The position numbers and the translations under genes are program-made. Below, piece after piece: positions 2,663-24,256 of a DNA stretch of 30,330 nt (the stretch's first letter is position 1; every line of letters begins with the position of its first letter). Location: NCBI GenBank assembly GCA_016180605.1, contig JACPAW010000141.1:1-30330 (forward strand). Reading direction: 5' to 3'. A model generated the notes under the pieces. That model did no database searches. It had not been told where the DNA came from and was given only the letters and a program-made list of their open reading frames with translations. The DNA comes from Candidatus Omnitrophota bacterium (GTDB lineage Bacteria; Omnitrophota; Gorgyraeia; Aquiviventales; Aquiviventaceae).

Positions 2663-3847
2663 TCAGTTTAACTGGCGCCAACTGAGGACAACTACCTGGA
2701 TGGGATTGCTGTTCCTGGCGGGATTCAGGGCATCATCGTAAATGTTCAAGGCTTCATCGTAGTGGACATCAGCACTTCCCCGAACGATGATTTCGCGGCC
2801 AATCACGGCGCCATAGAGATCGCCGTTGCCGAGGATTTCGACTGTTGCGTCGGGGGCGTTCAACTTTGCAAAAAGATCGGCATCTCCACCCATCGAGACG
2901 CGTAAACCCTTCACATGGAGAGTGAGATTCGTGGGAAGCTTTTCCGCAGTCTCAATTCCTCCCTTTCCAGAAACCTGAATATCCTCTTCCACATACACTT
3001 GGGCAGGTCCGATAAAGACCAGCTTGCCATGTCCTGAAATGCGAATCTCACGAAATCGATAGAGACCACCCTCCAATGCCACCACTTCATGTCCTGAAAT
3101 TAAAAGGCGCCCACCGTCGGGAAGCTGGGGCATCTCTACCGGCTCTAGCGCGGTCCCAACCTCCGCTACACGGACTTCACCCTCAATCCATGACCAGGTC
3201 TTTGATGTCTGCCAGAGGGTTTTCTCCGGATCGCTGCCTGGACCTAAGATCACATCCCCAAGGATGGCGACTCTACCCATGAGAGCCACCGCTTTTCTCT
3301 CATGCCCATTGGTCACAACCTGAAGGTTCCCTCGACTCTCCTTGAGACCGTACGATCCTTGACGCGAGTTGTAGCTATCCACCCTTACTCCCCTTTCGTC
3401 CTCCTCCGTATCATCGCCAAAACTGTCAAATCGGATGGATCGCTCACCTAATACCCCATAGCCAGGACCGGCAACTTTCACCCTCTGGACTATCGCTTCG
3501 ATCGTTCTTGAGGTATAGCCGAAGGCTGTCGGATCGTTTGAGGGGTAAAAACCTGTTGCCCGAACTCTCCACTGAGAAGACTGCGCTGGACCCACCCAAA
3601 TGGAATACCCACCGGAACCGTTTTCAATATCCGTATAGTCCACACCCATGTAATCGGGATCTTCCTTCAGCGAGTGAATCGCCACGTCAAGACCAGCCTC
3701 GCTTAGGTAAAATGCCTTCATCTGATGCCAGTCCCTTAGAGTAGCCCGCTGTGCCACTGTGGAGTAGGTCAGCAAGCCGCCGCTCCAGACCAGCAAGGTT
3801 CCTGCCATCACCAATGAAAATATGAGTGCGCTCCCGTGTCCGTTCAC
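2663..3847 (-). CDS. PilX/PilK-like type IV minor pilin with C-terminal beta-rich domain
   Basis: Short leader then G|SALIFSLVM hydrophobic helix (prepilin-like); KAFYLSEAGL motif typical of PilX N-termini; C-terminal IIVRGSADVHYDEAL. Confidence 0.75.
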   Translation of the reverse strand: MNGHGSALIFSLVMAGTLLVWSGGLLTYSTVAQRATLRDWHQMKAFYLSEAGLDVAIHSLKEDPDYMGVDYTDIENGSGGYSIWVGPAQSSQWRVRATGFYPSNDPTAFGYTSRTIEAIVQRVKVAGPGYGVLGERSIRFDSFGDDTEEDERGVRVDSYNSRQGSYGLKESRGNLQVVTNGHERKAVALMGRVAILGDVILGPGSDPEKTLWQTSKTWSWIEGEVRVAEVGTALEPVEMPQLPDGGRLLISGHEVVALEGGLYRFREIRISGHGKLVFIGPAQVYVEEDIQVSGKGGIETAEKLPTNLTLHVKGLRVSMGGDADLFAKLNAPDATVEILGNGDLYGAVIGREIIVRGSADVHYDEALNIYDDALNPARNSNPIQVVVLSWRQLN

Positions 3848-3907: not shown

Positions 3908-5605
3908 TCAACGCATCGGTACGATGCGGATGGAATCCGCCCCTTTTAAGGGGATGCCAGAAATGGTCAAACCTTCCAGAATGCCTTGCGTGTCTCCTGT
4001 TTGAAACGCGGTCCGTTGGGATTCGAAATGACACACAAGATCCAAGCGGCCATCCGCGTTCACATCCTCTGGCTTACAGAACACCAGGCTCTGTTCCGTT
4101 CCCAGCCGGCCGAACGTCAACGTGCTCTGCTTGACCACCTCCGGTGCCTTAAATCGATTGGTTGATAGGATAGCCACAGGAATCTTTCCCGGACTTTTTG
4201 GATTGATGGGATTCTCAAGCGACCCTGGCTTGATGTCAATGGGAACACTCAGGGGAGCTTGGGTGGGTTGGATGGCATATTGCAATAGCATAAGATCCGA
4301 TTGTCCCTCAACGTTACCCCCTTCCGAAAAGCTCTTCGAGTCACCGACTGCGTAAAGGTAAGACCCAACACGTTGTACTGCCCATGCGACATCATTTTCT
4401 CTGCCACCGTAGTAATGGGTTGAAAAGATCGAACCATCGGCCGGATTCAATTCCAACAAGAACGCGTCTTGCTTGCCGACTCCAAAACTGGAAGTGGTAC
4501 CTACGACGTAGAGTCGCTGGTTCTCCGGCGCGGTGCGGGCATGGTCATTCACGGTAACCCCGTAGGCTTGATCATCCGCTGGCCCACCCCACGTTTTACT
4601 CCATAAGAGATTTCCGGACTCATCATATTTCAGTATGACACCATCCATACCGCCGTTTGGACCATTCTTGATCGTTCCCACCACGTAGAGGTCCACCGCC
4701 GTAGATTGATACCGCTTTGAGGAAACCAGCGCCATTGCTCCACGCCATCCGGGAATAAAACCAGGATGGCTGCGGACCCAGATGAGGTTGCCCACATCGT
4801 CGTATTTCCACAACGCGATTTTCATAGCGTTGGAATCCGTGTAGGGATAATGGGTCATCCCGGCAACGTAGACGTAGCCGTTGAGGTTAGTGGCCGCACT
4901 CCCAAAACTGCTCATGAACCATCCCGTGTTGCCTAACACACGACTCCATCGCAGGGTGCCGGAGCCATCGTACTGGGCAAGAACGGCTGCGTTGTTTGCC
5001 CCGTTGGCCTGCGCGTAACCCGATGCATAGATGTAATGAGAGGCGCCGCTGCGGTCCGGCCCGTAGGTTACCGCTAAGAAGGATTCATTGCCTCGGTAGG
5101 TGAAGAAATTAGGCTTCGCCAACCATTCTGCTCCTCCAACACTGGACCCTGTAGCTCCCGTGAGTGGAAATTTAACCAGCACGCTTTTGTGTTCCTTTCC
5201 CCCAAATCCGTCTTCCGTCTGTGACCAGCTGCGGCCAGCAAAAAAGACTCCCCCTCGAGTTCCCACAACAGAGTCAAATACTTCGCTATTGACGTTGCCG
5301 GAACCATTGGCAACGTGAGGCCAGTAAGCTGTCCACTCCAGCTGCGGCGAACCATCCTTCGAAGAGAGCGTGTAGTGAAGCCCAATGGACTGACCCCTCA
5401 GAAGCGTTTCATCGACTCCGGAGAGATACACATCCGAGGCGTTGTGATAGGAAATTGCCGTTCCACGCTGGTTACCGCTACCCCCGTAAAGTACGGCCTT
5501 CTGAAATTTCACTCCCCCGTTTTCCTCCGCGTTACCGATCAAACCCCCTCCAAAGAAAACGACCGATGCAAAAAGCAGTCTGGCAATGCAAGGTATCCCC
5601 TTCAT
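3908..5605 (-). CDS. Secreted beta-propeller repeat protein with C-terminal IDIKPGS domain
   Basis: Signal-peptide-like N-terminus. Repeated G.VYVAG/LYVVG...KYD.SG.L.W blades. C-terminal IDIKPGSLENPINPKS...DVNADGRLDLVCHF (Ca-binding loop-like). SD GGGAGGG. Confidence 0.75.
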   Translation of the reverse strand: MKGIPCIARLLFASVVFFGGGLIGNAEENGGVKFQKAVLYGGSGNQRGTAISYHNASDVYLSGVDETLLRGQSIGLHYTLSSKDGSPQLEWTAYWPHVANGSGNVNSEVFDSVVGTRGGVFFAGRSWSQTEDGFGGKEHKSVLVKFPLTGATGSSVGGAEWLAKPNFFTYRGNESFLAVTYGPDRSGASHYIYASGYAQANGANNAAVLAQYDGSGTLRWSRVLGNTGWFMSSFGSAATNLNGYVYVAGMTHYPYTDSNAMKIALWKYDDVGNLIWVRSHPGFIPGWRGAMALVSSKRYQSTAVDLYVVGTIKNGPNGGMDGVILKYDESGNLLWSKTWGGPADDQAYGVTVNDHARTAPENQRLYVVGTTSSFGVGKQDAFLLELNPADGSIFSTHYYGGRENDVAWAVQRVGSYLYAVGDSKSFSEGGNVEGQSDLMLLQYAIQPTQAPLSVPIDIKPGSLENPINPKSPGKIPVAILSTNRFKAPEVVKQSTLTFGRLGTEQSLVFCKPEDVNADGRLDLVCHFESQRTAFQTGDTQGILEGLTISGIPLKGADSIRIVPMR

Positions 5606-5707: not shown

Positions 5708-5797
5708 GTTTCGGCAGCTAGGCTACCTTGGCGCATGCTGTAGGCCCTATGGCTTTGCGACCCTGCCTTTCGGCACCCGCCGCATCGTTTCAGCGGG
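5708..5797 (-). ncRNA. c-di-GMP-I (GEMM-I)-like riboswitch aptamer with divergent 5' half
   Basis: UGCC-GAAA-GGCA hairpin, GGGUCGCAAAGCC junction, AUAGGGCCUA...AGGUAGCCUAGCUGCCG P3 arm. Lies upstream of a terminator and of surface/pilus genes. Confidence 0.75.
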
Positions 5798-5922
5798 CCC
5801 GCCACGATCTGTGGCGCAGGTGTGCTCTTATCGTTCAGAGCTCTTACGAACCGAAAACGCTGAGGGCAGTCTTTGAGGGCAATCAATCACTGAAGGCTTG
5901 TCTGAGGGTTATTACTTCTCCA

Positions 5923-5970: not shown

Positions 5971-5994
5971 TTCACTCCTTGGTGTAGGCGCCGA
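5971..5994. repeat. 24-bp direct repeat, copy 1 (att-like)
   Basis: TTCACTCCTTGGTGTAGGCGCCGA is 22/24 identical to 12232-12255. Confidence 0.75.
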
Positions 5995-9571: not shown

Positions 9572-11206
9572 TTATGCAACGACGTCAGACGTCGGAGCGG
9601 AAGAAGCAGGCAGGATCACCCGTACGGAAGTGCCGATGCCAAACCGGCTGGCGATGTGAATGGCACCCCCATGATTCTGAACGATGTTATGGGCGATGGC
9701 CAATCCAAGACCGGTGCCGTATTCCTTTCTACTGAAGAAAGGATCGAAAATGTGCGCCAGATCTTCTTCGCGAATTCCAATACCGGTGTCCGAAATCTGC
9801 AGGTGTACTTTTCCTTCACTATCCGCCCCCCAAACGGACAGGCTCAGCGTTCCGCCTTCCGGCATCGCTTGAACCGCATTCATCAATAAATTAATGACCA
9901 CTTGCTTCATCTGGGAGGGATCGACAAAAACGGAAGGAGTATCCTCGTAGTGCCGGGCGATCTTGATTTTTCTATCGGCGCATATCCTGGCAAGCAAATG
10001 AACAATCTCCTCGATGAGCATCTTGAGGGAAACCGATTTGGGTTGCAGAGGATGCGGTTTGGCAAAGTCAAGCAACTGCTTGAGGATGTCATTGACTCTT
10101 TCCACTTCGGTAATCACCACGTCCCGAAATTCATGTCGGAATTCCGGCTCGTCATACCGGCTGGGAAGATATTCGGCGAAGATGCGGATTGCGGTCAGCG
10201 GGTTCTTGATCTCATGCGCCATGCCGGCAGCCAACGTGGCCACGGCTTTCATGCGTTCCGCATGAATCAGCTCGTGCCGCATGGTCATGTTTTCCGTGGA
10301 GAGTTCGGCAATGCTCTTGCCGAAGACCGTACGATCGATGAAACGGCTCAATCCATTTCGCAGCGGGTTGAATAAAACGGCCACAGTCAAGCCAGCAAAC
10401 AGCGAACCCACCAAAGAGCTGTAGCCGATAAGCCGCGCCAAAAGCTTTTCCGAGATAATGATAAACGCACCATAGGTTACCGTCAAAAACAGGGTCAGCA
10501 ATGCGTAAAGGGCCGTCTTCCGGATGATCCAATTCAGGCCCAGTATGTCATGCTTCAAAATCAGGTAAGAAGACGTGACCAGGTAAAAGGTCACGCCCAA
10601 ATTCGCCCCCAGCATTGAGGGAAATGCATCCTGAAAGAGAAGCCAGTTGCTCCAGGCCGCCGGCCAGCCAATCCATCCCACCATGAGGAAATACCGAATG
10701 CGCGTTTTCAGCGGCTCCCCTACCCTCTTTATCCGGCTAGCGGCAAAACGAAGAGTCACGATCACGTAATAGACTTCAATCGCGATAAAAACAAGGAGCC
10801 AGACTGTTCCATGCGGATAGAGCGGCAGTGGCGGCTTAGGACGCGGCGTTTCCAGAAATACCTGGTTGGCATTGAGCACGACCAGCAGCGCGCTGAGGAT
10901 ATAGCCAACCACCAAGTGCTTGCGATAAGCATCCCTGCTGTTGAAAAACACCAATGCGAAATGCAGCATGACCGTAGGCACAAAACAAGCAGGATAAAGC
11001 AGAAATTGAACCCACCATAGAACGGCCTCCGCCTGCGTCTGGTGAATGGCAATAAGGGAAGCAGCCGCCCACCAGGAAACAAACAACAAGAGAAATGCAT
11101 AAGCCAGGTGGATCGGATTGCGGGTTCTGCGGGCGAGGATGACAAACGCCAGAATGAACGCAAAGAGCGCGTTGACTAGAAATGTCGCTGCGTATAAGGT
11201 AGGCAT
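9572..11206 (-). CDS. Membrane sensor histidine kinase with N-terminal 7TM region (NtrB-like HisKA + HATPase_c)
   Basis: Multiple TM helices; H-box AGMAHEIKNPLTAI; N-box QVVINLLMNAVQA; G1 DTGIGI; F-box FDPFFS; G2 GTGLGL. Confidence 0.92.
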   Translation of the reverse strand: MPTLYAATFLVNALFAFILAFVILARRTRNPIHLAYAFLLLFVSWWAAASLIAIHQTQAEAVLWWVQFLLYPACFVPTVMLHFALVFFNSRDAYRKHLVVGYILSALLVVLNANQVFLETPRPKPPLPLYPHGTVWLLVFIAIEVYYVIVTLRFAASRIKRVGEPLKTRIRYFLMVGWIGWPAAWSNWLLFQDAFPSMLGANLGVTFYLVTSSYLILKHDILGLNWIIRKTALYALLTLFLTVTYGAFIIISEKLLARLIGYSSLVGSLFAGLTVAVLFNPLRNGLSRFIDRTVFGKSIAELSTENMTMRHELIHAERMKAVATLAAGMAHEIKNPLTAIRIFAEYLPSRYDEPEFRHEFRDVVITEVERVNDILKQLLDFAKPHPLQPKSVSLKMLIEEIVHLLARICADRKIKIARHYEDTPSVFVDPSQMKQVVINLLMNAVQAMPEGGTLSLSVWGADSEGKVHLQISDTGIGIREEDLAHIFDPFFSRKEYGTGLGLAIAHNIVQNHGGAIHIASRFGIGTSVRVILPASSAPTSDVVA

Positions 11207-11828: not shown

Positions 11829-12221
11829 ATGTCAACGGCACAGACCCACAAGAAATCCACGATTCTGATCTGCGATGATGAGGAAGGGGTGAGACGTTCC
11901 TTTAAGCTGATTCTATCCCCAACGTACGATGTGTGCCTGGCCAAGAGCGGACTTGAAGCGCTACGGATGCTTAAAGACAGCGCACCCCTGGCTGTCTTTC
12001 TGGACATTCGGATGCCGAAACGTCACGGACTCGATATCCTTCAACGAATTCGCAAGCTTAAACCTTCCGTCCCCGTCATCATCGTTTCGGGTTATCAGAG
12101 TGTGGATCTGGCCAACGAGGCATTCAAGTGTGGGGCTGTCGACTACATTCCCAAGCCGTTTTCGTCCAAACAGATCCTGAACGTGCTGGAAAAATTGTCG
12201 TCCGGTTCCGGCAAAATTTAG
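11829..12221 (+). CDS. Single-domain response regulator (receiver)
   Basis: LICDDEE, FLDIRMP (phospho-Asp), IIVSG, YIPKPF; no output domain. Confidence 0.92.
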   Translation: MSTAQTHKKSTILICDDEEGVRRSFKLILSPTYDVCLAKSGLEALRMLKDSAPLAVFLDIRMPKRHGLDILQRIRKLKPSVPVIIVSGYQSVDLANEAFKCGAVDYIPKPFSSKQILNVLEKLSSGSGKI

Positions 12222-12231
12222 GTGTCATTTC

Positions 12232-12255
12232 TTTACTCCTTGGCGTAGGCGCCGA
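12232..12255. repeat. 24-bp direct repeat, copy 2 (last codons of the protease gene)
   Basis: TTTACTCCTTGGCGTAGGCGCCGA, encoding ..GAYAKE* on the minus strand. Confidence 0.75.
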
Positions 12256-13195
12256 GGAACTCTCGGATGTGCTTGGAATGGATGGCGAAGTTAAGTCCCT
12301 GCCCCCCGGCCATCGCAGTCGCTAGAGCCACCATCTCCGAATCCCTATTGAGGAGTGGGCCTCCACTGCTTCCGGGATTGATCGCAGCGTCTGTTTGGAC
12401 AATCGTAAAACCCGCAAGCTTTCTTGGACTTAAATGCTCACAGGCCGGGATATTGATTTCCCCTAAATTAAGATCAGCCATGGACCGTACGGCACTGACG
12501 ACACCCCCTGAGATCGAAACGGTAAGACCCCCGGGGTTGCCAATGGCCACGACCTCGATGCCAGGATGCACCGTCTCTTCCTTGGCAAGGCCCAGGTAAT
12601 GAGGGGTGGGGGTGGGAACACGTACTAAGGCAAGATCATAACACGGATTTGTCTTAAGAACCCGCGCGGTAAAAGCACGGGAATGTTCCGGATTGATTTT
12701 TCCTGAGCTATCCGGCAGCAGAACCCGAATTTCGCGCGCGGATCCGACGACATGGTGATTGGTCACGATCAGGCCTTTGCGGCTGACTACCGCACCGCTT
12801 CCTAAACCGAACCCGCCATCATCCTGTTGAATCCCGATGAACGCCACCGCCTGAACGGCCTCGGCCAGAGTATGAGCCATGCCCTCTGCTTTTTGGGCTG
12901 CATGCCCTGCGGCGGCAGCTGGCTTTTTTTCCGAGGAAGAAGGCGTGGACTTATCCTTGGAAGGTACCCGCACAGGCACCGGTGGAGTTTCGTCGACTTC
13001 AATAGAGACGATTTCTTCCGGAGTGAAACTCACCATGCCGCCCTCCATCTGGACCACGACTTCTTGGGCAGAGCGGCGGACCACACGACCAAGCAAATGC
13101 GTGCCGTCCCTGAATCGGATCGTATCCGCAAATGAAAAAGACACGGCTGTGAAAATCAATGGGATCGAAAGATAGAATCGACTGGAAAGCTTCAA
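12233..13195 (-). CDS. Exported trypsin-like (S1C/HtrA-like) serine protease lacking PDZ
   Basis: Signal peptide; TNHHV (His), DLALVRV (Asp), DAAINPGSSGGPL (Ser). TTG start overlaps the stop of the upstream ATPase. Confidence 0.88.
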   Translation of the reverse strand: MKLSSRFYLSIPLIFTAVSFSFADTIRFRDGTHLLGRVVRRSAQEVVVQMEGGMVSFTPEEIVSIEVDETPPVPVRVPSKDKSTPSSSEKKPAAAAGHAAQKAEGMAHTLAEAVQAVAFIGIQQDDGGFGLGSGAVVSRKGLIVTNHHVVGSAREIRVLLPDSSGKINPEHSRAFTARVLKTNPCYDLALVRVPTPTPHYLGLAKEETVHPGIEVVAIGNPGGLTVSISGGVVSAVRSMADLNLGEINIPACEHLSPRKLAGFTIVQTDAAINPGSSGGPLLNRDSEMVALATAMAGGQGLNFAIHSKHIREFLGAYAKE

Positions 13196-15045
13196 CGCAA
13201 CTCCGGGGGGACAACGCGGATTAATTCTTCCAAACTCGTTTCTCCTTTACCCACCAGCTGCCAGCCCGACTGCCATAAGGTAAGCATCCCGCGGGATACG
13301 GCCGACTGCCGAATTTGAGTACTGGCGGTGTGTTTCAAAATCAGAGAACGAATGTGGTGATCCATGACCAAAAGCTCAAACACTCCGGCACGGCCGTGAT
13401 AGCCGGTGGCTTGGCATTTCCGGCAGCCGCGCGCATGCCCCAGTGGCACGGTCGCCATGGAAGCAGGAACGGAGAGGCCCATCTGGGTCAATGTCACCGG
13501 ATCCACCGAAGAGAGGGTGCGACATTCTTCGCATAGCTGCCGCATCAAGCGCTGGGAAAGGATTCCAATCAGTGTCGAGCAAAGAAGAAACGGCTCAATC
13601 CCTAAGTCCATCAGGCGCGTAATACCGCTTGCCGCATCATTGGTGTGCAATGTGGAAAGCACCAAATGACCCGTCAATGCCGCTCGCACAGCCAGATTGG
13701 CTGTCTCTTGATCGCGGATTTCGCCGACCATGACGATATCCGGATCGTGGCGAAGAACCGAGCGCAAGCCTGTGGCAAACGTCAGCCCGGTCTTGGAATG
13801 CACTTGGATCTGGGTTAAACCCGAAAGCTCATGTTCCACCGGATCCTCAATGGTGACAATATTCACGCGCCCGGTGTTCAGTTGTGTCAAAAAGGCATAA
13901 AGGCTCGTGGTTTTTCCGGAGCCGGTTGGCCCGGTGACGAGCAACAATCCTGTCGGCTTGTTCAGAAGCGTCAACAGACGTTCCTGTTGATCCGGTGTAA
14001 ATCCAAGCTGCGCGATTTGGAACATCCGTGCCGGTTCCAACAAGCGTATGGCCAAGCTTTCTCCCCGCGGCGTCGGAAGAACGGAGACGCGAAGATCCAG
14101 CTTGATGCCAGAGCGCTCAAAAAGAATTCTCCCATCTTGCGGCAATCGGTGTTCGGCAATATCGAGGTTGGCCATCACTTTAATGCGGGAGATGACACTG
14201 GCATAAAGCTCTCGAAACTGCGGTGCGGCGGGCACGGCATACAGGATGCCGTCGATCCGCTCCCGAATCCAGGGCCCCTCAGGTCCCACACCCAAATGAA
14301 GATCCGTTGCGCGATTCGTGTAGGCATGGTGGACCATTTGGTTGACCAGCCAGACGATCCCCTCTGATTCTTCTTGGACATCGCCGCTTGCTAGCTTTAT
14401 GGCAGAGGAGGGCTTGGAATGACGCACCCGGTGGGTGACTTCCGCCCCCATCCCGTAGCTTTGGCGTATGGAATCGGAAAGCTTGCCACCGATGACGGCA
14501 ACCGGCAGAAAATCGCAGCCCAAGATCACTTTCAGTTCATCCAAACGCTGTACGTCTAGGGGATCCGCCATTGCCAAGTGCAGGATGCCTTCATGCAGGG
14601 CAAGTGGAATGACTTGATAGCGCTGTGCCACCGATGCGGGGACACGCTGCAATAATTCCGGGTCGATGACCGCGTTCGTTAAATCCACTGTTTTCAGACC
14701 CATCGCGGCATAGAAGCATTGGGCGAAATCGAAGGGCTTCGTGAGATATTCGTCAGCACCCCGCTCGAAGGCCTCTCCCATCGTCTGGCTGTCGTTGAGG
14801 GCGCTGATGACAATGATCCGGGGCCGCTGTTGCAGGAGACTTAGATGGCTCAGTACTTCAAGCCCCGAACCATCGGGAAGCCGTAAATCAAGAAATACGA
14901 TTCCTACTTCGTTGTCGCGCAAATACTCCAGTGCCGCTTTGACCGTGGCCGTTATGACCACATGAAGCCCTTTGTCCTCCAGAAACGCTTTAAGCGCTTC
15001 TGACAATTTAACCTGGTCCTCTACCACCAAAACCACTTTCTCCAT
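13192..15045 (-). CDS. GspE/PilB-family pilus/secretion assembly ATPase with N-terminal receiver domain
   Basis: REC motifs VEDQ, FLDLRLP, ISA, LTKPF. Walker A GPTGSGKTT, Asp box IEDPVE, Walker B DIVMVGEIRD, His box GHLVLSTLHTND, Zn tetracysteine CEEC/CRKC. Confidence 0.9.
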   Translation of the reverse strand: MEKVVLVVEDQVKLSEALKAFLEDKGLHVVITATVKAALEYLRDNEVGIVFLDLRLPDGSGLEVLSHLSLLQQRPRIIVISALNDSQTMGEAFERGADEYLTKPFDFAQCFYAAMGLKTVDLTNAVIDPELLQRVPASVAQRYQVIPLALHEGILHLAMADPLDVQRLDELKVILGCDFLPVAVIGGKLSDSIRQSYGMGAEVTHRVRHSKPSSAIKLASGDVQEESEGIVWLVNQMVHHAYTNRATDLHLGVGPEGPWIRERIDGILYAVPAAPQFRELYASVISRIKVMANLDIAEHRLPQDGRILFERSGIKLDLRVSVLPTPRGESLAIRLLEPARMFQIAQLGFTPDQQERLLTLLNKPTGLLLVTGPTGSGKTTSLYAFLTQLNTGRVNIVTIEDPVEHELSGLTQIQVHSKTGLTFATGLRSVLRHDPDIVMVGEIRDQETANLAVRAALTGHLVLSTLHTNDAASGITRLMDLGIEPFLLCSTLIGILSQRLMRQLCEECRTLSSVDPVTLTQMGLSVPASMATVPLGHARGCRKCQATGYHGRAGVFELLVMDHHIRSLILKHTASTQIRQSAVSRGMLTLWQSGWQLVGKGETSLEELIRVVPPELR

Positions 15046-15176
15046 ATCTCACCTAAAGTATATTAAGGAATCATCACGTATAATAGATTAACTCAAGTAT
15101 ATCTGATCCTGGTAAGAGCTGAGAATCCCTTGCAGGAAGAAAAAATAGCGGCATCACAATCCCAGGGAGGAAGCCA

Positions 15177-23290: not shown

Positions 23291-24256
23291 TCATGGTGGT
23301 GGCGTAGACGCAGCCAGCGGTACGCGTGACATCCGTTGGCGTGCAACCAAGCTCCGGTAGGGAATGGGGTCAAGAGCCACCGCTTGTTGCACCAGGCGAT
23401 AGAAGAGCTTCCCACGGTAACGGGACAGCCGCCGATTGAACCGGAACGTGAACTCATTGAGGTAGTCATCAAGATGCTCATGCGAGACTCGACCCTGGTG
23501 GATGCCCAAGAGCCAGCGTTTGAGCAGGGCCGCGACCCGATGGACCCGGGGCAGCAGGGTCGAAGCGGTGCGGCCACTGCCGCTGACTTTCCGAGGCCAA
23601 TGGCGGTAGCCATGCTCGACCAAGCCGGGGTAGGCCGTCCAGCCATCTGTGATGACCACCGCTCCAGGAGCGATCACCGCTCAGACGAAACCGACCAGAC
23701 TCTCCGCAGACGCGTCAGGGATTCGGCGCAGATGGATGCGGCCGATGCCACCACCTTGGACTTCAGCCGCTGCCGCGACCAACGCTTTGGTCCGTCCCAG
23801 GTGGCGCTTGCCGCCACCTGGCTCGACACCTCCGAGGTAGATTTCATCCACCTCCACCTCCTCGGTCAATGGTTCCCGGCCTGGGCGAGTCATGGCCCAC
23901 CGCAACTTGTGCAGAATCGCCCACGCCGTCTCGTAGCGACTCAACCCCAGCGTCCGTTGGAGGCCCAAGGCGCTCACACCGCTCTTCTGGTTCGTCACCC
24001 ACCAGATCGCTTGGAACCACACGCGCAGGGGCAGCTGACTGCGATGGAACACCGTCCCCGCCGTCACCGATACCTCATGGCTACAGGCACAGCACTGCCA
24101 GAGGTGCCGACTGGTACGCCAGGCTCGGCTATGGCCACAGCGGGAACAGCGAAAGCCCTGCGGCCACCGCAACTGGGCCAAATACGCCCGGCAGGCGTCC
24201 TCGGTGCGGAAGCGGTCTTCGAACTCCAGCATGGTGCGAGGATACGCTTCGTCCAC
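23291..24256 (-). pseudogene. IS1595-family transposase interrupted by one in-frame TGA
   Basis: Zn ribbon CSRC...CCAC, HTH, VEVDE, ITDGW, LPRVH...LKRWL, YLNEFTFRFNRR. The two ORF-track pieces share a frame and are separated only by TGA (23683-23681) plus one codon. Confidence 0.9.

Follow-up and report, generated by a model that had tools for sequence, protein, structure and literature searches.

A gene in the 30,330-nucleotide window (the whole stretch of DNA analysed here, from an uncultured groundwater Omnitrophota bacterium with a 1.39-Mb genome) encodes a 617-residue protein, P0001, that is probably a competent hexameric ATPase of the GspE/PilB (extension/assembly) class in which a phosphorylatable receiver domain (REC) at the N-terminal tip replaces MshEN_N, the c-di-GMP-binding subdomain. 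The energy for type IV pili and type II secretion comes from PilB/GspE motors, and the routes by which signals reach them are an active question, with c-di-GMP acting through MshEN_N and receivers of the Pil-Chp, PixG and DrdR type acting in trans. The family of P0001 carries a receiver in cis exactly where c-di-GMP normally acts. The gene and its parts are as follows.

13192..15045, minus strand: gene for the REC-T2SSE_N1-T2SSE ATPase, 617 aa (ORF translation, Pfam, AF2)
15049..15125, minus strand: expression signals, a promoter-like site and a Shine-Dalgarno sequence
14701..15045, minus strand: receiver (REC), residues 1-115 (PF00072, E 7.9e-25; PDB receivers up to 6e-14)
14887..14889, minus strand: codon of the predicted phospho-acceptor Asp53 (FLDLRLPD), aligned with the Asp conserved in solved receivers
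14695..14739, minus strand: family-specific junction, residues 103-117, KPFDFxxCFYAAMG(L/I) (alignments, column counts, AF2)
14446..14700, minus strand: T2SSE_N1/MshEN_C subdomain, residues 116-200 (PF05157; PDB alignments to PilB, PilF and GspE begin here)
14377..14445, minus strand: flexible linker, residues 201-223 (AF2 pLDDT below 50 at 207-222; poorly conserved in the family alignment)
13216..14376, minus strand: GspE/PilB-class ATPase (N2 and C-terminal domain), residues 224-610 (PF00437, E 4.5e-123)

The only possible start codon in the reading frame is the ATG at 15045, which is preceded by a Shine-Dalgarno sequence, AGGTGA, 6 nt upstream (15054-15049). A promoter-like TTCTCA-18-TATACT lies at 15125-15096, and the promoter and terminator consensus scan did not rise above the level expected from shuffled sequence. 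A preliminary description made from the DNA letters had proposed that residues 1 to about 115 form an intact receiver, that this is joined directly to the second N-terminal subdomain of GspE/PilB (N1) and that a complete ATPase follows, and all of this was borne out. The three domains were assigned to residues 1-115, 116-200 and 224-610. Pfam Response_reg was matched at residues 5-109, and the residues named earlier were all present (E9-D10, D53 in FLDLRLPD, S81 and K103-P104-F105), as was Y100. In the AF2 model (mean pLDDT 90.1), the receiver adopts a (beta-alpha)5 fold whose alpha5 helix (107-114) runs directly into the N1 strand at 118-121 with pLDDT 87-91, and the sole disordered stretch is 207-222. 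The ATPase contains Walker A (372-379, GPTGSGKT), the Asp box (400-404, EDPVE), Walker B (434-445, DPDIVMVGEIRD), the His box (458-467, TGHLVLSTLH), an RLPQDGR motif at residue 300 and both CxxC pairs of the Zn-binding tetracysteine (CEEC at 505, CRKC at 541). This CxxC...CxxC insert is a feature of GspE/PilB proteins that separates them from PilT, and the NCBIfam PilT profile scored P0001 far lower than did the GspE/PilB profiles. Since P0001 falls below the equivalog cut-offs for both GspE (TIGR02533, 513.2 vs 630.25) and PilB (TIGR02538, 491.6 vs 675.65), it is a member of the class that can be assigned to neither equivalog. The best solved relatives of the ATPase in the PDB comparison were PilF (6f8l) and Geobacter PilB (5zfr/5tsg), with the alignment to the latter beginning at Geobacter residue 74, right after MshEN_N.

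MshEN_N, a bundle of four helices, consists of two 24-residue motifs, RLGxx(L/V/I)(L/V/I)xxG(L/V/I)(L/V/I)xxxxLxxxLxxQ, with a 5-residue joint between them (Wang et al. 2016, PMC5013675). No RLGxx motif was found in P0001 with either the strict or a very relaxed 24-residue pattern, in agreement with the preliminary description, nor did any of the 48 family members match a strict or relaxed MshEN_N motif. There is also no room for the subdomain in P0001, as REC ends at residue 115 and N1 starts at 116. The Pfam 'MshEN' match at residues 116-200 (PF05157, model positions 2-87 of 90, E 2.9e-17) was considered as an argument against a missing module and rejected, since the current model matches N1 only, from GLKTVDL on; in the T2SSE_N model examined in 2016, helices 1-3 of MshEN_N, and with them the c-di-GMP site, were missing (Wang et al. 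2016, PMC5013675). The proposal that the receiver replaces the MshEN module therefore holds for MshEN_N, which is gone, but not for N1/MshEN_C, which is kept and still matched as 'MshEN'. In the closest ordinary PilBs the helix-bundle pattern of this region is retained, the strict RLG motif occurs in 0 of 75, and the motif Arg is mostly missing, so that c-di-GMP binding by the ancestor is unproven. Equally unproven is the earlier suggestion of control by phosphorylation rather than by c-di-GMP, as c-di-GMP might be bound elsewhere or act through a PilZ partner.

P0001 belongs to a small paralog clade of single origin that comprises about 48 clusters. Of 185,579 species genomes about 11 carry it, and most of these are MAGs of groundwater Omnitrophota; the estimate rests on a scan of all species genomes for the junction pattern (10 loci). 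A phylum-wide search found the family in 0 of 300 other genomes, a result that is weak alone, with 10 candidates scored per genome. Searching a representative library with residues 1-235 returned at least 7 true matches, after which multi-REC proteins crowded out distant REC-N1 fusions. The family forms one clade (SH-aLRT 100), sister (96-98) to ordinary MshEN-T2SSE PilBs of Omnitrophota, on a long stem branch of 0.71-0.77 substitutions per site, which makes a changed function possible. Two derivatives without N1, P0129 and P0169, are nested within it. Origin of the family by deletion from a REC+MshEN_N+N1 ancestor was also considered and is unsupported, since the proteins with that full architecture, P0045 and the P0249 group, have their own separate positions within the sister clade.

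Despite an identity of only 43-64% within the family, all 44 aligned members have D10, D53, S/T81, K103 and P104 without exception, and Y/F100 is kept in 43 of 44. The ATPase motifs are kept to a similar degree (K378 in 43/44, E442 in 41/44 and the four Cys in 43-44/44), with a few divergent members carrying degraded Walker or His-box residues. The junction by which REC alpha5 is joined straight to N1 is rigid and highly conserved, and its Cys110 is invariant. Judging from these residues, the receiver looks phosphorylatable, and because D10, D53, S/T81 and K103 never vary among the 44 members, control by phosphorylation is the best-supported reading of its role. A short, rigid and conserved junction of this kind offers a compact system for studying how an N-terminal signal is passed to N1 and the hexamer.

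The genes near P0001 in the window include possible partners in both signaling and export.

12233..13195, minus strand: exported HtrA/DegP-like serine protease, 320 aa, with a signal peptide and without PDZ (Pfam Trypsin_2)
9572..11206, minus strand: 7TM-HisKA-HATPase histidine kinase (Pfam; kinase core)
11829..12221, plus strand: stand-alone receiver, 130 aa (Pfam)

The TTG start of the protease gene overlaps the TGA stop of P0001 (TTGA), and the two genes are described here as co-transcribed and translationally coupled; the NCBIfam DegP/HtrA subfamily match of the protease was below cut-off. The 7TM kinase, 2 kb downstream of P0001, is a candidate phosphodonor, as yet unproven, and the stand-alone receiver may be a branch of the same phosphorelay or a sink for it. 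An imperfect 24-bp duplication (22/24 matches by direct comparison; the repeat search did not list it) brackets the block that holds the kinase and the single REC, which may therefore be later arrivals and not original partners. Downstream of P0001, at 3.7 kb, is a gene for an RCC1/PA14 protein, and a c-di-GMP-I riboswitch lies 7 kb away, inside the window. No PilC/GspF, PilM or pilin gene adjoins P0001, and no platform or pilin gene was found in the 30-kb window.

The same picture was obtained for relatives in about 9 distinct genomic contexts, where no platform, pilin or secretin gene was found beside a family member and, in most, no adjoining kinase. The 'pilus or secretion machine' of the preliminary description can thus not be named, as neither P0001 nor the family contexts have PilC/GspF, PilM or pilin genes adjoining. 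Synteny with the window was confined to L034, L035 and L039, all from one Omnitrophica CG11 genome (17 window proteins searched by tblastn in 18 loci). In L034, the REC-PilB gene closes an operon of overlapping genes (PAS-HK, REC, REC, REC-PilB) and is followed by a 1180-aa kinase, a REC gene, an S26 peptidase and a protease orthologous to that of the window (42% identical). The core of the window's 7TM kinase shares 36% identity with the PAS kinase heading this operon, and the stand-alone receiver shows 31-35% identity to both of the single-REC genes that directly precede REC-PilB in L034. Linkage of the family to kinase and receiver genes is recurrent but not universal, and linkage to the protease was found in 2 of about 9 contexts. 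Two further counterparts were rejected: the 318-aa gene found downstream in L029 does not encode the protease, and the 1180-aa L034 gene, considered as a relative of the RCC1/PA14 protein, is a kinase. Other neighbors of family genes were ECF sigma factors, sucCD, an OmpR-like regulator and giant secreted or surface proteins, the last no more than two genes away from a family member in L029, L030/L031, L032/L033 and L045.

P0001 is an orphan, one of 13 T2SSE ATPases in the source genome. The PilC loci are on other contigs (C14, C5 and C168), and the genome also encodes three secretins, PilM and about 12 HisKA kinases; the pilus cluster on C168 has a REC-HK gene and a REC gene on its own flanks. 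Six small genomes bearing the family were checked and have 7-13 T2SSE ATPases each, showing that these organisms diversify mainly the regulatory tips of their motors.

Given this setting, P0001 most likely serves as an alternative motor under signal control, sharing one of the genome's three PilB-PilC machines, all of which are encoded elsewhere. A histidine kinase, either the 7TM kinase or one of the HisKA kinases of the genome, would phosphorylate D53, and the S81/Y100 switch would then remodel the alpha4-beta5-alpha5 face of the receiver. As alpha5 is continuous with N1, we propose that the REC-N1 unit as a whole would be repositioned or dimerised upon switching. The outcome would be an on/off switch, either of motor docking onto a platform encoded elsewhere or of the ATPase cycle itself. 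In a bolder and improbable version, REC-N1 would be a phospho-controlled docking adaptor that lets the orphan motor take the place of the resident PilB on a PilC/PilM platform used by both ('motor swapping'), converting a type IV pilus machine into an exporter. In these ultra-small, possibly epibiotic bacteria, a kinase signal would trigger export of the co-transcribed protease and of giant adhesins encoded nearby while the cells attach to a host. If true, this would be a natural, cis-encoded swap from second-messenger to two-component control on one motor scaffold.

Export also figures in a rather unlikely alternative to a shared pilus machine, in which P0001 is the dedicated motor of a T2SS-like exoprotein system and the receiver times the export of the HtrA-like protease and nearby giant surface proteins. 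The translational coupling of the protease gene and the retention of its ortholog in the L034 cluster fit this, as do the giant secreted or surface genes near family members, the RCC1/PA14 gene in the window and a GspE profile score slightly above that for PilB. However, no GspF, GspD, GspL or pseudopilin gene adjoins P0001, PilF and PilB, not GspE, are its best matches among solved structures, and the protease is linked in so few contexts; giant genes are moreover common throughout Omnitrophota (PMC10066038), so their proximity may be chance. This alternative agrees with the preferred reading of a receiver-gated motor on regulation and differs in output alone.

The regulatory role itself would be lost if the receiver served for structure or dimerisation, or as a phosphate sink, on an ATPase that is constitutive or regulated by partners, for example by PilZ with c-di-GMP in trans. 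An active c-di-GMP network in the genome (at least 6 GGDEF and 9 PilZ matches, and the riboswitch near P0001) is consistent with such an arrangement, and PilZ-PilB regulation in trans is known in Xanthomonas (PMC8389850) and non-phosphorylated receivers are exemplified by FrzS (PMC1974792). The residues for phosphoryl chemistry and the Ser/Tyr switch are nevertheless invariant or nearly so in a family this divergent, which is unexpected for a purely structural domain, and pseudo-receivers of the FrzS type are without the Asp, unlike the P0001 family; we consider a non-switching receiver improbable. Least probable of all is that P0001 is a degenerating or regulatory-only paralog that drives no machine and forms mixed hexamers with canonical PilBs or titrates partners from them. 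Its orphan location among so many T2SSE paralogs in a 1.39-Mb genome, the long stem of the family, the few members with degraded motifs and the nested N1-less P0129 and P0169 could be read in this way. Every catalytic motif is intact in P0001, however, and likewise in most family members, and the gene has its own ribosome-binding site and a promoter-like site, so that a competent motor gated by its receiver is the reading we retain.

Compared with the c-di-GMP-binding ATPases of the MshE/PilB type (V. cholerae MshE VC0405, P. aeruginosa PA14_29490 and M. xanthus PilB; PMC5013675), P0001 shares N1 and the T2SSE domain with its Zn tetracysteine, as well as the placement of the regulatory module at the extreme N-terminus, ahead of N1. 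The module itself differs, being a 53-residue MshEN_N with two RLGxx...Q motifs in those proteins and a 115-residue receiver in P0001. GspE N1 docks onto the cytoplasmic domain of GspL, a GspL/PilM-type platform. In the V. cholerae EpsE/EpsL pair (PDB 2BH1, 4PHT), the N1 fold precedes a flexible linker, as in P0001. Receivers that act on PilB in trans include PilG/PilH of Pil-Chp (PMC12632253), the PATAN-REC protein PixG/TaxP1 that binds PilB1 in Synechocystis (10.1101/2021.06.11.447907) and DrdR of Xanthomonas (PMC13507683). These act by binding or localisation and provide a functional precedent for gating of pilus assembly by phosphorylation, but all are separate proteins, whereas the P0001 receiver is covalently fused, in cis, through alpha5 to N1.

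Fusions of REC to GspE/PilB-class ATPases have arisen at least 4 times independently. REC-MshEN-T2SSE proteins are listed by Wang et al. 2016 (PMC5013675, Suppl. Table 4), for example Geobacter metallireducens Gmet_3473, which shares an N-terminal receiver and a GspE/PilB ATPase with P0001 and whose MshEN_N is taken from that table. The catalogued architecture has both the N and C subdomains of MshEN, whereas P0001 has REC and T2SSE without MshEN_N. Metagenomic proteins of the full type are P0045 and those of the P0249/P0372 group (Ca. Auribacter fodinae), which are about 700-720 aa long, have a 75-110-residue segment between REC and N1, and nest in the ordinary PilB clade, apart from the P0001 family. 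The perfect RLG motif in this segment of P0045 indicates that REC was there added and not substituted, and P0372, of this full type, heads a complete pilus/T2SS operon. A metagenomic REC-N1-T2SSE protein, P0391, shares the replacement layout, with REC ending about 10 residues before N1 and no MshEN_N. It is an independent fusion, as it has 35% identity, another junction sequence and a branch outside the clade of the P0001 family and its sisters. Its gene lies between a REC-GAF-HK/REC cluster and T2SSF (pilC) and pilin genes, which follow it directly, whereas P0001 is an orphan.

The preliminary description had allowed that the architecture might already be common and characterised. It does have precedents, as REC-MshEN-T2SSE is catalogued and fusions are recurrent, but the literature search returned no paper characterising a REC-fused PilB. 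The practical impact is modest, with the hosts uncultured and the receiver-PilB fusion already in domain catalogues. Since related architectures are known in this way, P0001 is a variant and not a new kind of system. Its natural comparators are the forms with both REC and MshEN_N, the sisters with MshEN only and the derivatives without N1.

The ATPase gene offers a single ATG as a possible start, preceded at 6 nt by a good Shine-Dalgarno sequence (AGGTGA), and its product comprises a receiver (REC), an N1 domain (T2SSE_N1/MshEN_C) and a T2SSE ATPase.

Features of the ATPase gene and its product
13192-15045, minus strand: ORF of the REC-N1-T2SSE ATPase
15125-15096, minus strand: promoter-like site (sequence scan)
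Residues 5-109: Response_reg (Pfam, 7.9e-25)
Residues 116-200: PF05157 'MshEN' (Pfam, 2.9e-17)
Residues 224-610: T2SSE (Pfam, 4.5e-123)

The preliminary description of a PilB/GspE ATPase with a receiver in place of MshEN_N, the N-terminal helix bundle that carries two RLGxx c-di-GMP motifs, was right in all particulars when examined by Pfam, motif scans and an AlphaFold2 model. The PF05157 match (model positions 2-87 of 90, from GLKTVDL onward) represents the N1 part alone, because, according to Wang et al. 2016 (PMC5013675), the Pfam T2SSE_N model that they examined at the time was missing helices one to three and, with them, the binding site. The absence of the c-di-GMP motif was borne out by two scans of the protein, one with a strict motif and one with a very relaxed version of 24 residues, neither of which gave a match, and the solved Geobacter PilB aligns with it from PilB residue 74, directly past MshEN_N. 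The receiver, which had been called intact, has its acidic pocket (E9-D10), phospho-Asp (D53), Ser switch (S81) and KPF lysine and proline (K103-P104), together with Y100. In the AlphaFold2 model, computed from a 70-sequence alignment (mean pLDDT 90.1, pTM 0.74), the receiver has the canonical (beta-alpha)5 fold and its alpha5 (107-114) leads straight to the N1 strand 118-121 at pLDDT 87-91, the sole disordered stretch being the linker 207-222 ahead of the ATPase. The direct joining of receiver to N1 and then to a complete ATPase held for the Pfam borders, the modeled junction and the catalytic motifs, with Walker A, Asp box, Walker B, His box, the RLPQDGR arginines and both CxxC pairs present.

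Among 5.8 billion clustered proteins, the full-length query retrieved about 42 clusters that share all three Pfam domains with the window ATPase (47-64% identity), and a query cut to residues 1-210 added five more, after which the score fell from 178 to 107 bits, a level at which REC alone matched. Those members of this REC-PilB family that have a name come from 'Candidatus Omnitrophica/Omnitrophota' MAGs. When 185,579 species, one genome each, were scanned with the junction pattern KP[FV][DE]FxxCF[YFH], 10 loci were found, mostly in groundwater Omnitrophota MAGs, with a few bins labeled Planctomycetales or Gammaproteobacteria. No member was found among the best 10 candidates per genome in 300 other genomes of the phylum. 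Across 44 aligned members, D10, D53, K103, P104 and Cys110 are invariant, position 81 is S/T in all 44 and Y/F100 occurs in 43; the junction KPFDFxRCFYAAMG(I/L)ETVDL is strongly conserved, and nearly all members retain the ATPase catalytic residues. Even a relaxed MshEN_N motif was found in none of 48 members.

In a tree built from ATPase columns, all members of the family group in a single clade (SH-aLRT 100) whose stem is long (0.71-0.77), with ordinary MshEN-T2SSE PilBs of Omnitrophota as its sister (support 96-98). At least one relaxed MshEN_N motif occurs in 57 of 75 sister proteins; the strict RLG form occurs in none of the 75, the Arg being mostly L, P or I instead, so c-di-GMP binding by the immediate ancestor is not taken as given. 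A passage in Wang et al. (PMC5013675) refers to an earlier study in which altering charged residues, including Arg9, shifted affinity at most about five-fold.

Other fusions were found among the metagenomic protein clusters (P-numbers). Those of type A (REC + MshEN_N + N1 + T2SSE, about 700-720 aa) are placed at two separate points within the sister clade and include P0045, with a perfect RLG motif, and the P0249/P0372 group, which takes in Ca. Auribacter fodinae. Receivers are C-terminal in P0385 and P0327. P0391 (641 aa) has the same REC-N1-T2SSE layout as the window ATPase, with only 35% identity, another junction and a branch outside the family clade, and evolved independently. Receivers were therefore joined to these motors on at least four occasions, and the layout lacking MshEN_N has two or more origins. 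P0129 and P0169 lack N1, the receiver joining the ATPase N2 domain directly, and share the family REC and the tail KPFDFxRCFxAAMG; P0129 falls within the family, so its N1 loss is secondary, and P0169, left off the trees, is linked by the same REC and junction. Odd Omnitrophota PilB architectures also appeared among the family-search matches (P0108, P0116, P0043): MshEN-T2SSE followed by PilZ at the C-terminus (about 703-713 aa), and a protein of 1008 aa in which two T2SSE ATPase modules stand in tandem.

No PilC/GspF, PilM or pilin gene was found in the 30-kb window, where the ATPase gene has the following neighbors.

Neighborhood of the ATPase gene
12233-13195, minus strand: HtrA/DegP-like exported protease, PDZ-less, start overlapping the ATPase stop
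11829-12221, convergent: stand-alone REC
Beyond this REC, before the 7TM kinase: XRE-cupin regulator
9572-11206: 7TM-HisKA kinase
Between the 7TM kinase and the riboswitch: RCC1/PA14 giant protein
5710-5836, minus strand: c-di-GMP-I riboswitch RF01051 (42.6 bits; gathering score 35)
3908-5605: SBBP beta-propeller protein, 565 aa, behind the riboswitch
2663-3847: DUF7305 protein, PilX-like N-terminus, behind the riboswitch

A TTGA overlap couples the protease start translationally to the ATPase stop codon. An imperfect 24-bp direct duplication (22/24; 5971-5994 and 12232-12255), which copies the 3′ end of the protease gene, encloses the genes for the RCC1/PA14 protein, 7TM kinase, XRE-cupin regulator and single REC, genes that could have been inserted later next to the ATPase-protease pair. 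The riboswitch lies directly upstream of the SBBP and DUF7305 genes, so that the neighborhood of an ATPase devoid of MshEN_N is one in which c-di-GMP acts through RNA. The MAG encodes a c-di-GMP network, counting at least 6 GGDEF and 9 PilZ matches, and loss of MshEN_N therefore did not result from loss of c-di-GMP signaling. Elsewhere in the window, an IS1595-type transposase ORF (23681-24256, minus strand; Zn-ribbon and truncated DDE domain) lies amid housekeeping genes.

No partner gene is constant across the family. The sole syntenic relative, Omnitrophica CG11 (loci L034/L039), has a divergent M48 peptidase gene followed by PAS-HisKA kinase, REC, REC and REC-PilB genes with overlapping stops and starts, and downstream genes for a membrane kinase of 1180 aa, a REC, an S26 signal peptidase and, next to the latter, the ortholog of the window protease (L034:14643-15662, 42% identical). 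Other members adjoin ECF sigma/anti-sigma genes and giant PKD/Big proteins (L030, L032), a giant He_PIG/CBM96 protein (L029), an OmpR-like regulator (L036) or sucCD (L037, L044), or lie near an SpvB/TcdB/RHS protein (L045). The latter (L045:11725-18066, Omnitrophota MAG), encoded two genes downstream of the family member, is a 2113-aa SpvB/TcdB-middle/FG-GAP/RHS-repeat protein of Tc-toxin-like shell architecture. P0391 (L047:6329-8254) lies in a pilus operon, between genes for an OmpR-type regulator, REC-GAF-HD, REC-GAF-HisKA kinase, REC and HATPase upstream and T2SSF and an N_methyl pilin downstream, and P0372 comes first in a full ATPase-T2SSF-pseudopilin-PilMNO operon, showing that receiver-tipped motors do serve real pilus/T2SS-like machines.

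In the MAG (1.39 Mb, 76% complete), 13 T2SSE matches exceed the family cut-off and 7 of these belong to the PilB/GspE class, a density unusual for small genomes; five other family-bearing genomes (1.0-1.9 Mb) have 7-13 each. The MAG further encodes PilC pairs on contigs C14, C5 and C168 and a Tad-like pair on C44, along with three secretins, a single PilM and some 12 HisKA kinases. Its complete type IV pilus cluster on C168 (255-11588; PilB, PilC, pilins, PilM/N) is preceded by the gene for a REC-HisKA hybrid kinase and followed by one for a stand-alone REC, and so offers a parallel to receiver control in which receiver and motor are not fused.

With its anatomy, conservation and contextual links directly observed, the window ATPase is best read as a motor of GspE/PilB class that is probably gated by phosphorylation. 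Phosphotransfer to D53 would set off a signal that S81/Y100 and the alpha4-beta5-alpha5 face relay to N1, with which the receiver is contiguous, and platform docking or the ATPase cycle would thereby be controlled. The candidate outputs are pilus assembly on the one hand and, on the other, export of the giant proteins and of the protease whose gene is coupled to that of the ATPase.

Control of PilB by receivers in trans is established, according to reports on Pil-Chp (PMC12632253), PixG/TaxP1 (10.1101/2021.06.11.447907) and DrdR (PMC13507683), and the main Omnitrophota survey (PMC10066038) discusses type-4a pili and not their regulation. Full-text literature searches found no paper characterizing a receiver-fused PilB or GspE. 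Supplementary Table 4 of Wang et al. 2016 (PMC5013675) lists 'REC - MshEN - T2SSE' without functional data, for Gmet_3473 and in beta-, gamma- and delta-proteobacteria. The window family is therefore a real, uncharacterized variant, an orphan paralog of narrow lineage, and not a new category: the catalogued proteins likewise carry a receiver on a motor ATPase, whereas here the receiver substitutes for MshEN_N.
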